Program-made: the position numbers and the translations under genes | Shown: in pieces, positions 5,212 through 51,814 of the stretch | How the letters are laid out: each line of letters starts with the position of its first letter | How positions within the stretch are numbered: position 1 is the first letter of the stretch | Sequence record: PQ821640 | Direction: 5' to 3' (one strand) | Length of the DNA: 64,000 nucleotides | DNA from: Escherichia phage SD2 | The notes under the pieces: model-generated | The model's input: the letters and a program-made list of their open reading frames with translations, nothing else | The model's database searches: none | Told to the model about the DNA's origin: nothing

Positions 5212-5767
5212 TGTCTTCTCCTTTACCTGCCCTCCAGCCTAAATAGAAAGCCTCTCTGGTGATCTTTTGCAACTCGTTTAAAGAGATAGTTACAACTAAA
5301 TCATCTTCAATCTCTAGCTTTGAGTCTTCTTCTGTCTCAATGCAAGTATTATGCACTTTGTGGTAAGGTTTGTCAACACGTTTAAATTTATTATTTTCAA
5401 TACTGAAGAAGCAATCTGGATCTTCTTCTCCATCACCCCAGCCCTGGTTAGGGTCTTCTTCAGATCTTTCTGTTGGGATCTCACCTGTAAAGTGCTCTTC
5501 TAATATCATAGCGATACCATCTCCAAGATCGGAAGAGAACATCAAGTTACAAACTTCTTCCCAAGGCATAGACCACTTAAATCTTTTACGATTGCCATGT
5601 TTATCTTCTTCGTTAGAGAAAACACTACCATAGCTATCATAATTGCCATACATCTCTTCAACAACTTTACCACCTTTCAAAAGAAATAGGTAGCAAGGAG
5701 AGCCATCGAAAGAGGTAGAAAGAGCAGCATTACCAGACTCTTTGCACAAGAAACTAAAACACCCCAT
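5204..5767 (-). CDS. hypothetical acidic protein
   Basis: ORF track 187 aa. Confidence 0.45.
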   Translation of the reverse strand: MGCFSFLCKESGNAALSTSFDGSPCYLFLLKGGKVVEEMYGNYDSYGSVFSNEEDKHGNRKRFKWSMPWEEVCNLMFSSDLGDGIAMILEEHFTGEIPTERSEEDPNQGWGDGEEDPDCFFSIENNKFKRVDKPYHKVHNTCIETEEDSKLEIEDDLVVTISLNELQKITREAFYLGWRAGKGEDSA

Positions 5768-33349: not shown

Positions 33350-33470
33350 ATGCGTATGATAATCATTCTCATTTGTAAATGAGAATCATTATCATTTAAT
33401 TATGTAAATGATAAGCATTCTCACTAAGAGAATGAGAATCATTAGCAAATGAGAATTTTTCTCATTTGCA
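33350..33470. promoter_or_regulatory. cluster of at least 4 Fur-box-like palindromes
   Basis: ATGATAATCATTCTCATT, AATGAGAATCATTATCATT, AATGATAAGCATTCTC, AATGAGAATCATTAGCAAATGAGAA versus Fur consensus GATAATGATAATCATTATC. Confidence 0.45.
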
Positions 33471-40677: not shown

Positions 40678-41064
40678 ATGAAAACAGAAATCATTATTGA
40701 AATCATCAACGGTTATAAAGAAGCCTTTATTTTTGCTGAATCAGCAAGGGATCATGAAGGTAATTTTATTGATAACTTAGACGATTATGATTTTTCAGAT
40801 CAAGCCCATCAACGGATCATTAATGACGTAGCGGCTTATTGTGATGCCAATGATGCTGCTATCTCTGAGGCAATGAGCGACGGCGCAACAGCAAACCAGA
40901 TCGGGAATGATTTACATTTTACCCGTAACGGTCACGGCGTAGGTTTTTGGGATCGCCCTGAAATATACACTACTAACACCGCCAACCGCCTAACAAATGC
41001 AGCTAGATTAATGCCATCGGTGCATGCTTACATTGGTGAAGATAATTTGATTTATATTGAATAA
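40678..41064 (+). CDS. hypothetical acidic protein
   Basis: ORF track 128 aa. Confidence 0.55.
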   Translation: MKTEIIIEIINGYKEAFIFAESARDHEGNFIDNLDDYDFSDQAHQRIINDVAAYCDANDAAISEAMSDGATANQIGNDLHFTRNGHGVGFWDRPEIYTTNTANRLTNAARLMPSVHAYIGEDNLIYIE

Positions 41065-41070
41065 AAAGTG

Positions 41071-41129
41071 TTGACACCGATCCCCAATATGGTATTATTT
41101 ACCACGTAGGCGGGAAATGGTTTCCCGCC
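41071..41129 (+). promoter_or_regulatory. cassette 14: promoter TTGACA + hairpin GGCGGGAAATGGTTTCCCGCC
   Basis: Canonical hairpin. Confidence 0.65.
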
Positions 41130-41153
41130 AGGTAATCAAAAAAGGTAAACATT

Positions 41154-41543
41154 ATGCGCAACCTGATTTCTGTTTCTAACGTTGAAAAATTTCAATCCTT
41201 GCAGGGTATCATTAACAACGTAGCGCCTTTTTTAGTCAATGGCTTGATTGCAAAGATGAAAAATAAACATCATGCGGCATGGTCTGCTTATTGCTTTGAT
41301 AATGATGAAAAAGCGGCTGAAATGATGTTAAATATGCTTTTGGATAGTGTAGAATCATCTTTACCGGAAAACATCGCAGAAGAGATCACCTATCGTTATA
41401 ATATGGCGATCACTTACCAGGAGGTTGCGCAATTCAACATGATGGATGATGACGAACAACAGGATCAAGAAATGTTCTGGGAGTATGCAGATCGTCAATC
41501 GGCTTTTGATGAAAAGTTAGCGATGTATTATAACGAATATTAA
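41154..41543 (+). CDS. hypothetical protein (cassette 14)
   Basis: ORF track 129 aa. Confidence 0.55.
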   Translation: MRNLISVSNVEKFQSLQGIINNVAPFLVNGLIAKMKNKHHAAWSAYCFDNDEKAAEMMLNMLLDSVESSLPENIAEEITYRYNMAITYQEVAQFNMMDDDEQQDQEMFWEYADRQSAFDEKLAMYYNEY

Positions 41544-41557
41544 TACACGGTAAAAGA

Positions 41558-41585
41558 AAGGGGCGCACTAAGCGCCCTTTTTTGT
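41558..41585 (+). terminator. rho-independent terminator
   Basis: AAAGGGGCGCACTAAGCGCCCTTTTTTTG. Confidence 0.7.
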
Positions 41586-41861
41586 ATTCTTTTTTCACGA
41601 TGGAAACAACACGTAAAGAATAGGCGTAAAGGTGGCGTAAAACAGCCTAAAACCGATTATAACCGCTTAAACAAGGTAGGGATGATTAATCACCTTACCA
41701 GGATGAAAAAGCCGTTATAAAGCTATCTAGAGCGTTTAAAGCACATAGGAAATAATTTGCTTTTTATCTTGCCTTTTATTCTGCTTTTGATTATTATTAT
41801 GGAACGGGCGGCACCTGGGAGCAGGGGAAGATAATCACCGGACGATCTTATTATATATTGA

Positions 41862-41880
41862 TAGCTTCCACCTATCAAAC
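41862..41880. promoter_or_regulatory. inverted repeat TGATAGCTTCCACCTATCA
   Basis: 6-bp arms TGATAG/CTATCA; second copy at 42753. Confidence 0.4.
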
Positions 41881-41928
41881 AACAAAACATTAAAGAAATA
41901 AACTATCAAATCTTTACAATCTCACCTA

Positions 41929-41987
41929 TTGACACCGGATCGCCCTTATACTAAGATGTATCACGTAGGCGGGAAGTGGTTTCCCGC
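41929..41987 (+). promoter_or_regulatory. cassette 15: promoter TTGACA-TATACT + hairpin GGCGGGAAGTGGTTTCCCGC
   Basis: Hairpin variant. Confidence 0.6.
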
Positions 41988-42006
41988 TCAATATAGGAAT
42001 CATATC

Positions 42007-42237
42007 ATGATCGAACAAATTAAACGCGCTGAGGCTATTAACGGCAATGTGATCTACTCTGTCAGCAATAACGAAAAAGGCGTACCTTATGCAGCGGTGA
42101 TAGTACAGCCTGACGGTGATTATTGGTTTACTGTATACGGATCTTATTCTTTTGGGCGTCCAGTACATGATAAAATTTTGAAAGTAGCTAATCCCACTGG
42201 GAAGAATATCACAGTAGAAAAATTCTTTGAAAAATAA
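42007..42237 (+). CDS. hypothetical protein (cassette 15)
   Basis: Start at MIEQIK, Met27 of track ORF. Confidence 0.5.
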   Translation: MIEQIKRAEAINGNVIYSVSNNEKGVPYAAVIVQPDGDYWFTVYGSYSFGRPVHDKILKVANPTGKNITVEKFFEK

Positions 42238-42312
42238 CTTGCTTTATAGCCTCTGTTAATTTATAGTTATCGTGTAGGGCAAGCAATTTTAAACGGTAAA
42301 CGAGGAATCTCC

Positions 42313-42696
42313 ATGAGCAATATCATCAACCTGGCGGCTACTGTAAACGGTAAAGATTTTAACGGCGCTGTAGATCGTGATCCTATGTGGTACTTGTCAG
42401 TATTTAAAGGCGATCTGGTTGAAGTTAGAACAACCGAAGGGTATAGCGATGATTATAAATGCGAGATCCATTTACATAACTGGTACACGGGGAAAACTTA
42501 TGCGCTAAACCATGCGTTTATCGGGAAAATTGAATATCGCGAGATGATCGACGAAGAAACGGGGCAAGATTTTAGCGATTATGTTTATATTCGTTCAGAA
42601 ACATTAGCCGAACGTTTGATCGAGAAAATGAAAGCAAAAAATAAAATTAATTTAGCTCATTGGCTTGATATAACAAACGATCCGGCTTATAAGTAA
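42313..42696 (+). CDS. hypothetical protein
   Basis: ORF track 127 aa; RBS ACGAGGAA. Confidence 0.55.
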   Translation: MSNIINLAATVNGKDFNGAVDRDPMWYLSVFKGDLVEVRTTEGYSDDYKCEIHLHNWYTGKTYALNHAFIGKIEYREMIDEETGQDFSDYVYIRSETLAERLIEKMKAKNKINLAHWLDITNDPAYK

Positions 42697-42711
42697 ATAA
42701 CATTTCACACC

Positions 42712-42740
42712 AGGGCGCACAAAGCGCCCTTTCTTTTTTA
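42712..42740 (+). terminator. rho-independent terminator
   Basis: AGGGCGCACAAAGCGCCCTTTCTTTTTT. Confidence 0.7.
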
Positions 42741-42752
42741 CCTAAATAAAGA

Positions 42753-42772
42753 TGATAGCTTTTACCTATCAA
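42753..42772. promoter_or_regulatory. inverted repeat TGATAGCTTTTACCTATCA
   Basis: Second copy of TGATAG-N-CTATCA site, again just downstream of a terminator. Confidence 0.4.
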
Positions 42773-42939
42773 AAACGTTCACCGAAAAAAGTGAATAGAT
42801 CGCGGTATCGAGCTAATCAAGGAGCAGATGAACAACCATACCATGAAGATCATAAGGCGCTTACAACGTGTTTTAGACCGCTTATTTTTAATTTCTTCAT
42901 GTAACTATCTGGCAAAAACAGCCTTTTTCTTGTCTTTCC

Positions 42940-43020
42940 TCTTAAATGATAATCATTCTTATTTATAGCTGATTATTTATGCAATAAACTGAATAATGTA
43001 ATAATGATAATCATTCTTAA
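42940..43020. promoter_or_regulatory. two Fur-box-like sites (AAATGATAATCATTCTTAT; ATAATGATAATCATTCTTAA)
   Basis: 14-16 of 16-18 positions match Fur consensus. Confidence 0.45.
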
Positions 43021-43844
43021 CTTAAGACCATCTAACCTATAAAATAATAAGTTATCTAACTAAATTAAAACTAATTATCTCACCTTTATTTATAACTTAC
43101 TGTTACTATCTCATTGATAACCTTATATTAAACAACAATAACTAATATAAATTATTACTAAGCTAAATATAATCTATCTAACCTTTAAAACTATAATTAT
43201 AATCTATCGAATTGTTGCACAAAGTAACTATTAAATTGTTAGTAACATTACTAAATAATTAATATCCTATCTATTTATGATCTAATCTTTACCTTCCTAT
43301 TTATTACCTAAATAATCATTTCATACCGTAATCATTTCATACAATAATTATAACAAGAAATATAATTAACAAGCGTATCATTAGCAGCCTATGCCGGACA
43401 CATAGGCGGCTAATAATAACGCAACTACACACCCCACATAATAACCATCACCGATAGTTATTATTTGTGCTTATGTAGCTTGCAACAACTGCAAGCGCAA
43501 CAATATACATGGTATATTGTATTCCCTTACATTGTTGCGGTGCGTTATTATTAGCTAATGTTTGGAACATTGGCTATAATATAAGCTATCCAATAATAAA
43601 CATAGTGAATAATAACCCTGATGATCATAATGCGCCACCTTCCAGGGGGCGCTATGTGAACACAAAGAAATCTTTCTTGTCAAGAAAAATATTACCATTA
43701 TTGCGCAAAATTATTTACATCTGAATAGATGGTTTTTCATACTATTGCCCCATATAGCCTATCATTTGTTGAGCCTACTTTCTTAAAAGCGCAATAAATT
43801 AGAATTATCTTGATTTTTAGGGCGTTTTATAGTATAGAAAATAT

Positions 43845-43865
43845 GCAAATGATAATCATTATCAG
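43845..43865. promoter_or_regulatory. Fur-box-like site GCAAATGATAATCATTATCAG
   Basis: 16/17 match to GATAATGATAATCATTATC. Confidence 0.5.
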
Positions 43866-44029
43866 TTATCTTCCACGGGTGGCACTATTTCACGCAGGAT
43901 CATTTCATTTGGCAAGGTGTATATAGATGTTTAGACTTGCCAAGCCATTGATTTGCTTAGAATTTATCTGTTTTGTTGTGAGTAATGCCTTTCTTGCTCA
44001 GAAAATAATCAAAAGTCTTATAAGTCATT

Positions 44030-44062
44030 GAATGATAATGCAAATGATAATAATTCTCATTG
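44030..44062. promoter_or_regulatory. Fur-box-like tandem site GAATGATAATGCAAATGATAATAATTCTCATTG
   Basis: Overlapping GATAAT hexamer repeats. Confidence 0.4.
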
Positions 44063-44179
44063 ATATTTGAGGGGGACGGTCAGCAGAAATCGGGGGGCGC
44101 TGAAAATCGCGTTAAGCACCTCTCGCAAGCGAGCAGTATTTTGCGGCAAGTTATTGATATTATTGACTTTACGCTTATG

Positions 44180-44290
44180 AAAAGGGGGTGTGTCGAAATA
44201 AATCGGGTATACCGGAAAATTTTTGTGGCATAGATATTTATTTGTCTATATTATGTACAAAGGGGTGTGTTAAAAATATTAGGTATATAT
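44180..44290 (+). promoter_or_regulatory. two copies of AAAGGGGTGTG-N-AAATA-N-T(C/T)(G/A)GGTATA motif
   Basis: 44180-44210 and 44259-44290; upstream of the 44468 operon. Confidence 0.35.
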
Positions 44291-44467
44291 AGAATAATTG
44301 ATAGGGAAATCCTATACTAAATCCTTCATTATTGCAGCGGGTGAAAGACAGAATCGAAGATGCAAATAATGCTTGCATTGGATAGAAATGTCTGTATAGT
44401 GGTTTGCATACCGCGCACGACGCGTTTCCATTTTCAATAAAATGTTAGCATTATGGGGAGGTAGAAA

Positions 44468-44935
44468 ATGAGCGAAAAACCAGTGAGAGCTTCCACAATA
44501 TTGGAAGCATACCTGCAATGCGTTGTAGATTACGTCAAGAGAAACTCCAGCCTACTGGACGTCTACCGTGCAGATGATGGCGATGTTGGTATTGTCTATG
44601 TGAAACACACTTTATCCGCGCGTAATGAGGTTTTCCGTGCAAGTATGTTAGGGTGTGATCGTGTTCGTGTGAACTATTTAGACCCGAACTATCGCCATGC
44701 TCTTGAAGATATTGAAGATTATCTTCCTCGCTGCCCGACAGGTAATGCAAAAGTGGCAGAAGAAGCCCCACAAGGTGTTGATTATCGTGTAGCCTTGTGG
44801 AAAAAGGCACGTCAACTACAAGTGCTGAATGAAATGAAAGAAGAGATTGAAAAAGAACTGAAAGAAGATTTTGGTATGCTTCCAAAAGACGCTTTGAAAT
44901 GGTATGATGAACTAGGAGGAGAAAGTTATGAATAA
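44468..44935 (+). CDS. hypothetical protein (first gene of small-gene operon)
   Basis: ORF track 155 aa; RBS GGGGAGG. Confidence 0.6.
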   Translation: MSEKPVRASTILEAYLQCVVDYVKRNSSLLDVYRADDGDVGIVYVKHTLSARNEVFRASMLGCDRVRVNYLDPNYRHALEDIEDYLPRCPTGNAKVAEEAPQGVDYRVALWKKARQLQVLNEMKEEIEKELKEDFGMLPKDALKWYDELGGESYE

Positions 44936-45104
44936 AGGAACTACTGTATATTTAGTGACTAAGAACACCCCAGGTTGGAATCAGTGCACAACAACTCCGT
45001 ATAAGATTTGTGCAACATTGGAACTAGCACGACGTGCAGAAGCAGAAGTTGATGCTATGCGATACAGCTATGGTGAAATCATTCCTTTTACTCTTCAACA
45101 ATAA
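44928..45104 (+). CDS. small hypothetical protein (~58 aa)
   Basis: Manual ORF overlapping upstream stop (ATGAATAA); approximate. Confidence 0.4.
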   Translation: MNKGTTVYLVTKNTPGWNQCTTTPYKICATLELARRAEAEVDAMRYSYGEIIPFTLQQ

Positions 45105-51760: not shown

Positions 51761-51814
51761 TTTGTACCGATTGATAGCAGGTTTTTAATAGATTTTATCT
51801 ATGAGGAGTAGAAA

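Follow-up and report, generated by a model that had tools for sequence, protein, structure and literature searches.

Two inverted repeats matching the OxyR operator pattern are conserved near the genome end of phi92-like Escherichia coli phages

What reads a short palindrome that a virulent phage keeps in two copies, one on either side of a slot for small early genes? The question arises from a 64,000-nucleotide stretch of Escherichia phage SD2 DNA (PQ821640; "the window" denotes this whole stretch), in which the inverted repeat TGATAGCTTnnACCTATCA occurs at 41859–41877 (site 1) and 42753–42771 (site 2). The window is part of the genome of a virulent phi92-like E. coli myophage (Justusliebigvirus, Stephanstirmvirinae). 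From ~38 kb to >46 kb its genes are all small, early-type and on the + strand; the promoters here are sigma-70-like and the intrinsic terminators strong, and between 41000 and 44000 it is 92–96% identical to many phi92-like phages. An initial annotation had taken the repeats for the binding site of a dimeric DNA-binding protein and had looked to infected cells for the binder. A dimer site of the helix-turn-helix type would fit all of the sequence evidence presented here, namely half-sites that are kept, a spacer centre that is free, the lack of covariation, a weak hairpin and the published consensus of the OxyR dimer. As to the binder, we propose a correction: the likeliest candidate is host OxyR rather than a factor specific to infected cells. 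We give the reading of both repeats as operator dyads of this LysR-type regulator a probability of about 0.5.

The 6-bp arms TGATAG and CTATCA are perfect in both 19-mers, as first described. Site 2 indeed begins at 42753, and the true start of site 1 is 41859, 3 nucleotides (nt) off the 41862 originally assigned to it. Site 1, TGATAGCTTCCACCTATCA, reads TGATAG-CTTCCAC-CTATCA and site 2, TGATAGCTTTTACCTATCA, reads TGATAG-CTTTTAC-CTATCA; the longer unit common to both is TGATAGCTTnnACCTATCAAA, a shared stretch of ~21 bp. The pattern TGATAG-N7-CTATCA occurs twice in the window as against 0.00 times in 100 dinucleotide shuffles, so that the expectation of a motif more frequent than chance was borne out. 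Copies were counted over a whole genome in phage muut, a close relative with a complete 146-kb sequence that is 100% identical over the site 1 query 41840–41900. It holds none beyond these two, and a matrix built from the orthologous sites scored them at 32.6 and 31.6 bits and the runner-up at 14.4 bits. An operator repeated in many copies across the genome was rejected, because muut and the window each have only two strong copies and the next matrix score is 18 bits lower.

Both repeats closely match the published binding pattern of OxyR. Its classical consensus is ATAGnTnnnAnCTAT-N7-ATAGnTnnnAnCTAT, where one ATAGnTnnnAnCTAT dyad is bound by one dimer of OxyR, and the motif derived genome-wide in E. 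coli is GATAGBYHWDRVCTATC. Site 2 agrees with the latter at 17 of 17 positions (dyad at 42754–42770). Site 1 agrees at 15 of 17 (dyad A, GATAG-N7-CTATC, 41860–41876), among them 10/10 arm positions as well as the T and the A position. No other dyad in the 64 kb has 10/10 arms. When the same measure was calibrated on the K-12 promoter regions of oxyS-oxyR, katG, dsbG-ahpC, dps and grxA, the best dyads reached 6–8/10, and in this respect the phage dyads differ from those of the five classical host regions in lying nearer to the consensus. The T-N11-A pattern of LysR-type sites is likewise present, with T3 and A15 standing 11 nt apart in GATAGCTTCCACCTATC and GATAGCTTTTACCTATC, and is kept in every relative examined. 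A further palindrome, ATAGATTTTATCTAT at 51787, follows TTGATAGC within 51771–51803 and lies directly upstream of the ribosome-binding site GAGGAG; it fits ATAGnTnnnAnCTAT with outer arm bases off the 17-mer motif and, given its place on a ribosome-binding site, looks unrelated.

Site 1 does not stand alone. A weaker second dyad, dyad B (TAAAGAAATAAACTATC, 41891–41907), lies 31 bp downstream of dyad A with 8/10 arms, for which the chance of at least 8 at a given position is 4.8e-4; no partner was found at a 22-bp offset on either side. A complete OxyR operator is expected to have two dyads, and so four ATAG elements, on a single face of the DNA, set 22 bp apart for oxidised OxyR and ~31–32 bp apart for the extended, reduced form. 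An offset of 31 bp also separates the top two dyads in the oxyS-oxyR region of E. coli. Downstream of the pair is a sigma-70 type early promoter (TTGACA-17-TAAGAT, 41929–41957, + strand), which matches at 10/12 positions, is conserved in relatives and has its predicted start at ~41964. Site 1 sits 51 bp before its −35 element, and the centres of dyads A and B fall at about −96 and −65. The arrangement is like that of the E. coli oxyR-oxyS operator in its dyad (ATAGnTnnnAnCTAT, or GATAGBYHWDRVCTATC, in a T-N11-A frame), in the 31-bp offset of the second dyad and in its position upstream of a sigma-70 promoter. It is unlike E. coli OxyR operators in that site 2 is a single dyad without a promoter, that the setting is a virulent phage genome and that the OxyR site is here a candidate. 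Dyad B overlaps a match to the IHF consensus (TATCAAATCTTTA, 41904–41916), of which ~7 would be expected per window by our estimate. A minus-strand promoter, TTGATA-17-TATAAT, overlaps site 1 and was set aside as the shared function, being confined to the window/muut/inny type; in other relatives its −10 reads TATAGC.

Conservation was followed in 19–20 Stephanstirmvirinae genomes of two genera, Justusliebigvirus and Phapecoctavirus, together with metagenomic relatives (n = 19 for site 1, n = 20 for site 2). Both sites stand at orthologous positions in every genome examined. The arms keep 8–10/10 positions at site 1 and 9–10/10 at site 2, with 7–8/8 for the ATAG/CTAT core throughout, and the differences among phages fall at the spacer centre and the outermost arm base. 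At site 1 the arms vary as T[G/A]ATA[G/A] and CTAT[C/T]A and the spacer centre as TCCAC, AATAC, AACGC, AACAC, AACAT, AATAA, AATAT or TCTAC; site 2 varies as TGATAG[C/A]TT[T/C][T/C][A/G]CCTAT[C/G/T][A/G], with further single changes in two relatives. Spacer position 2 is invariably T and position 6 invariably A or G, corresponding to the Y and R of the OxyR motif, and positions 3–5 are free. Site 1, dyad B and the promoter belong, with a GC-rich segment, to a conserved non-coding block of ~185 bp (block A, 41785–41969, + strand) that retains 83–85% identity even to Phapecoctavirus, where the flanking genes are different. The most variable columns of this block are the spacer centre of site 1 and the spacer of dyad B, a dyad whose arms are invariant across 19 genomes. 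Pattern scans of public collections yielded few extra relatives, and five of six exact matches in IMG/VR have unrelated flanks, about the chance expectation. Four unannotated GenBank records marked UNVERIFIED and labelled "Campylobacter phage" (A145, A150, C3 and A110a) are classed as Justusliebigvirus and are ~95% identical to the E. coli phage region; their host label looks doubtful.

From the sequence match, its uniqueness, the conservation pattern and the geometry, we infer that OxyR could bind here and what its effect might be. Host OxyR, a dimer of dimers, would bind during infection, each dimer reading one ATAGnTnnnAnCTAT dyad. Site 1 would then be the strong dyad of a composite site whose partner, 31 bp downstream, has the extended spacing that reduced OxyR uses. 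Bound at dyads A and B (about −96/−65), the protein would modulate the last early promoter, which would drive the variable cassette before the genome end, and its role there would most likely be that of an upstream activator or an architectural factor, as at the AB half-sites of P22 gtr. Site 2 would be a solitary high-affinity dyad at the edge of the terminal region; it may capture the second DNA-binding pair of the tetramer to form a loop with site 1, or block read-through transcription into the terminal region, or do no more than hold OxyR.

Lambda, P22 and Mu offer precedents for OxyR sites in phage DNA. In P22 gtr, the published half-sites A, B and C each match the single-dimer consensus at 9–10 positions and lie ~32 bp apart, a spacing that the same paper describes as consistent with the binding of reduced OxyR, and the upstream AB pair (about −103/−71) gives OxyR-dependent activation; dyads A and B (about −96/−65) lie near these coordinates. 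In lambda, an OxyR site has been footprinted at pM-OR3. These three phages are temperate and OxyR there controls lysogeny-linked or phase-variable genes, whereas the present dyads lie near the genome end of a virulent phage. They also lack GATC, which the sites of gtr, mom and agn43 contain and through which those are switched by Dam methylation. The OxyR site in Mu DNA is reportedly that of mom and is said to go back to work by Bolker and Kahmann in 1989. Typical activating OxyR sites abut the −35 element, and the phage composite lies further upstream (−96/−65). Site 1 resembles a generic LysR-type site in having one strong 15–17 bp T-N11-A dyad with a weaker neighbour upstream of a promoter; the strong dyad of such sites is usually near −65 and the weak one near −35, as compared with −96 and −65 here. 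In the literature we found neither this motif nor OxyR described for these phages.

Several observations weigh against OxyR. The likeness was noticed only after the motif had been found, and we estimate at roughly 1% the probability that a conserved palindrome would match the arms and spacing of some known regulator by chance. In this phage, site 1 departs from the motif at the W and D of the spacer, and in Phapecoctavirus site 2 has lost its outer arm base (CTATG) and site 1 has ATAA. No promoter was recognised near site 2, and no partner dyad of at least 6/10 was found for it at offsets of 21–23 and 30–33 bp on either side. The genes between the sites have no known link to oxidative stress. 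The metagenomic relative L006 (IMGVR_UViG_3300045988_074297, 5513–5603) keeps both dyads without the promoter, so that site 1 cannot act only through the promoter at 41929. Lastly, the two sites share asymmetric extras, CT... as against ...AC in the spacer and a trailing AAA, which a symmetric OxyR dyad does not need.

These extras bear directly on the main rival, according to which the repeats are operators of another dimeric protein that happens to read GATAG-N7-CTATC, be it a small early protein of the phage or a LysR-type regulator of the host other than OxyR. Through them this protein would govern the last early operon and delimit the terminal region. We consider such a protein unlikely, though a serious contender. 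It would leave the same conservation pattern, with arms kept and spacer free; the conserved asymmetric features (TG...CA flanks, trailing AAA, CT/AC spacer edges) exceed the OxyR consensus; two sites per genome are what a dedicated local regulator would have; and most early genes of these phages are uncharacterised. However, none of the eight neighbouring proteins showed a DNA-binding domain, and tblastn with the N-terminal region of OxyR detected no LysR-type homologue encoded by the phage. Another dimer also leaves unexplained why the host OxyR consensus is matched at all specified positions and why the partner dyad has the same 31-bp offset as in oxyS-oxyR. Among other regulators, the consensus sites of FNR, CRP, MarA/SoxS (the box), NarL, HipB and P22 Arc were compared by hand and none fitted.

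A second rival, which we find improbable, holds that the repeats work as nucleic-acid hairpins and not as protein sites. In the RNA form, a stem-loop in read-through transcripts would serve as a stability, processing or anti-termination-type signal like the two-copy nut/put sites; in the single-stranded DNA form, a hairpin would act in replication or in the processing of concatemers close to the genome end, a role proposed for the T7 right-end palindrome. A stem of 6–7 bp with a 7-nt loop is indeed predicted on both strands (z = −6.4 for site 1 on the + strand), the middle of the loop is hypervariable, each genome carries the two copies near the probable terminal repeat, and in phage arall the outer pair is changed from G-C to A-T on both sides. 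This is the single symmetric double change, however, and arm changes are mostly one-sided: TAATAG/CTATCA in Paula, TGATAA/CTATCA in phAPEC8 and a CTATGA right arm at site 2 of Phapecoctavirus, which place A-C, A-C and G-G mismatches in the stems of Paula/Eryne, the phAPEC8-type phages and Phapecoctavirus site 2, respectively. The stems are weak (−4 to −5 kcal/mol), the covariation term of RNAalifold is 0, and an Rfam scan of 41000–45000 at E ≤ 1 returned no family; a structured RNA element was rejected on these grounds, one double change standing against several uncompensated single ones. Both sites also follow intrinsic terminators, and site 1 lies upstream of a promoter as well, so they should be poorly transcribed. 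The conserved "loop" positions, T at 2 and a purine at 6, suit protein contact better than a free loop. Lambda nutL/nutR boxB offers a likeness in that a short sequence able to form a stem-loop is present twice per genome, in early regions, but nut sites act as RNA and are found downstream of promoters and upstream of terminators, whereas the phage dyads come after terminators, show no covariation and have loop positions suited to DNA–protein contact. The 7-nt spacer has the look of a tRNA anticodon loop (CU-NNN-RC), which we regard as coincidence, since ARAGORN found no tRNA in the window and several variants would put A at the wobble position. The fixed half-sites, taken with the freely varying spacer centre and the lack of compensation, argue for a dimeric DNA-binding protein rather than RNA, and OxyR remains our preferred candidate for that protein.

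Each copy had been described as lying immediately downstream of a strong terminator. Both terminators exist on the + strand, with stem-loops at 41555–41583 and 42712–42730 that are each followed by a T run, and the description suits site 2, which begins 23 nt past the second stem; for site 1 the distance is 276 nt. The first terminator (T1, 41555–41593, + strand; a 12-bp stem with 6 GC pairs, then the T run) ends the upstream early operon and lies outside the element. The second (T2, 42712–42739, + strand) is the last terminator before the terminal non-coding region, and relatives keep its stem and vary its loop. Phapecoctavirus has a different terminator, ending ~76 nt upstream of site 1, and a position after a terminator is no part of the element. 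Three CGTAAA copies, which had been called phased, are present at 41612, 41625 and 41636 with spacings of 13 and 11, so that the copies stand and the phasing does not. They lie ~220 bp upstream of site 1 and outside the element, because Phapecoctavirus lacks the segment that carries them (~41590–41770) and yet keeps site 1. The trio spans 30 bp (41612–41641), and its host segment is found only in the Justusliebigvirus type; its last two copies give GTAAA-N6-GTAAA, which exceeds the CpxR box GTAAA-N5-GTAAA by one base.

Between the two sites lies a slot of changing content. The promoter at 41929 is predicted to drive two genes here, both of unknown function: one for a 76-aa protein (phrog_9227; 42007–42237, + strand), which is absent in arall, 92CQ, KKP_3264, ZCKP1 and ukendt, and one for a 127-aa protein of the T4 gp30.8 family (PF06019, E = 1.2e-29; 42313–42696, + strand), which is replaced by other genes in phAPEC8 and phiWec181. 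There is no gene between the sites in L006, one in each of the five phages that lack the 76-aa gene, two different ones in phAPEC8 and three in phiWec181. The motif was not found in contigs that carry more distant homologues of gp30.8. Breakpoints of the slot fall at 41969 (promoter +5), where homology to relatives with other downstream genes breaks off, at 42264 and at T2, and none falls at the repeats themselves. L006 is a natural deletion variant that has lost the promoter, both cargo genes and T2, so that 72 bp separate the dyads; its junction shows a short TCTTT/TTTAC microhomology. The early promoters at 41927–41987 and 41071–41128 are alike over ~60 bp (80–84% similarity), and phage A145 (contig L025, 3094–3414) has an extra segment of ~320 bp exactly at the promoter, the right edge of which repeats promoter-like sequence. 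Together, the insert and the promoter similarity suggest that cassettes are shuffled through recombination between promoter modules.

The promoter-early stem-loop (PeSL) cassettes of T4-type phages, reportedly described by Arbiol and colleagues in 2010, are said to be many-copy modules with a terminator-like hairpin. The present locus is like them in that a slot of varying content is flanked by conserved non-coding modules, promoters and terminators, that lie between small early genes, and unlike them in having two copies only, a repeat separate from the terminators and recombination breakpoints outside the repeat. A tyrosine-recombinase core site, or the ends of a mobile element, was rejected because the spacers differ at 2/7 positions (CTTCCAC and CTTTTAC) and because L006 keeps both sites with its junction outside them. 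Least probable of the readings we weighed is that the repeats are functionless passengers in duplicated regulatory "bookend" DNA, terminator plus promoter modules that mediate cassette shuffling by homologous recombination as in the T4-type cassettes: the terminators beside the sites are alike (family D4), the early promoters share their ~60-bp similarity and 0 to 3 genes lie between the sites among relatives with breakpoints as given above, but those breakpoints lie outside the repeats, the copies share only ~21 bp and no longer duplicated module, the deletion variant retains both copies, and arms that stay at 8–10/10 across two genera while spacers drift point to selection on the arms.

A 1.7-kb AT-rich non-coding region (42740–44467), with site 2 at its left edge, probably contains the physical genome ends. 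The BME3 paper reports direct terminal repeats of 342 bp by PhageTerm; the two ends of the BME3 record, 342 nt each, map to window positions 44113–43772, and in an independent assembly (PD211/IMG-VR) the contig end is equivalent to window position 43771. The 342-bp segment 43772–44113 is thus the probable direct terminal repeat, which like the dyads is given without a strand. Counted from the right genome end, site 2 is ~1.0 kb inward, to the left of this repeat. In the BME3 record, the DTR-L feature is 73 nt off the real terminal duplication, and an extra 788-bp duplicate is present near the right end.

A third, weaker dyad (site 3, GATAGGGAAATCCTATA, 44300–44316) lies 186 bp to the right of the terminal repeat and 1.5 kb from site 2, just upstream of the first gene after the repeat. 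It is the sole site with 9/10 arms in the 64 kb. Its membership of the family is uncertain: the T and A spacer positions are not matched, it scores 11 bits or less with the matrix from sites 1 and 2, and it has in common with them the arms only. In muut and phAPEC8 it reads GATAG-GAATCCC-CTATG.

Other features of the terminal region are listed here in their own right. A 46-codon open reading frame after site 2 (42828–42968) has a good ribosome-binding site, aaggagcagATG, and is probably not a gene, because Phapecoctavirus retains neither its start codon nor its frame. A tandem repeat, TAATCATTTCATAC x2, occupies 43313–43344 and is annotated as a repeat_region in phage inny, and the AT-rich part at 43030–43350 holds further short iteron-like repeats (ATCTAACCT..., TAATCTATC...).

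The terminal region also carries sequences resembling the boxes of a second host regulator, Fur, and their closeness to the dyads counts in favour of the OxyR reading. Boxes of the Fur type numbered 6 against 0.08 expected. Four Fur-box-like sequences (AAATGATAATCATT...) lie in the terminal non-coding region at 42944–42962, 43000–43018, 43845–43863 and 44042–44060, two of the four inside the probable terminal repeat; the best, GCAAATGATAATCATTATC, agrees with the Fur consensus GATAATGATAATCATTATC at 17/19 positions, and the first is kept in Phapecoctavirus as AATGATAACCATTATCAT. A second large non-coding region (33350–33470) is dense in overlapping Fur-box-like repeats (tatgataatcattctcatttgtaaatgagaatcattatcattt...gagaatgagaatcattagc), which probably correspond to the repeat_region features near 75.3 kb in muut. 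It is conceivable, though we think it rather doubtful, that the terminal region is a hub of consensus-strength sites for global regulators of the host, in which OxyR dyads mark the borders and Fur boxes lie in the interior, some of them in the terminal repeat. Such a hub would read the redox and iron state of the host at the start of infection, or would soak up OxyR and Fur as phage DNA amplifies; titration of Fur would in that case de-repress iron uptake for the iron-dependent ribonucleotide reductases of the phage.

It is commonly assumed that virulent coliphages rely on host RNA polymerase and factors of their own for the early programme and ignore host stress regulators. Judged by its sequence, the repeat described here would be a better-than-native OxyR-type operator, conserved across two phage genera and placed beside Fur-type boxes at the genome end. 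If OxyR does bind it, early expression or genome-end functions would be coupled to the oxidative and iron status of the host in phages of a kind widely used in therapy cocktails, and the DNA between the two sites would be an expression slot under host regulation, with cargo genes that differ from phage to phage.

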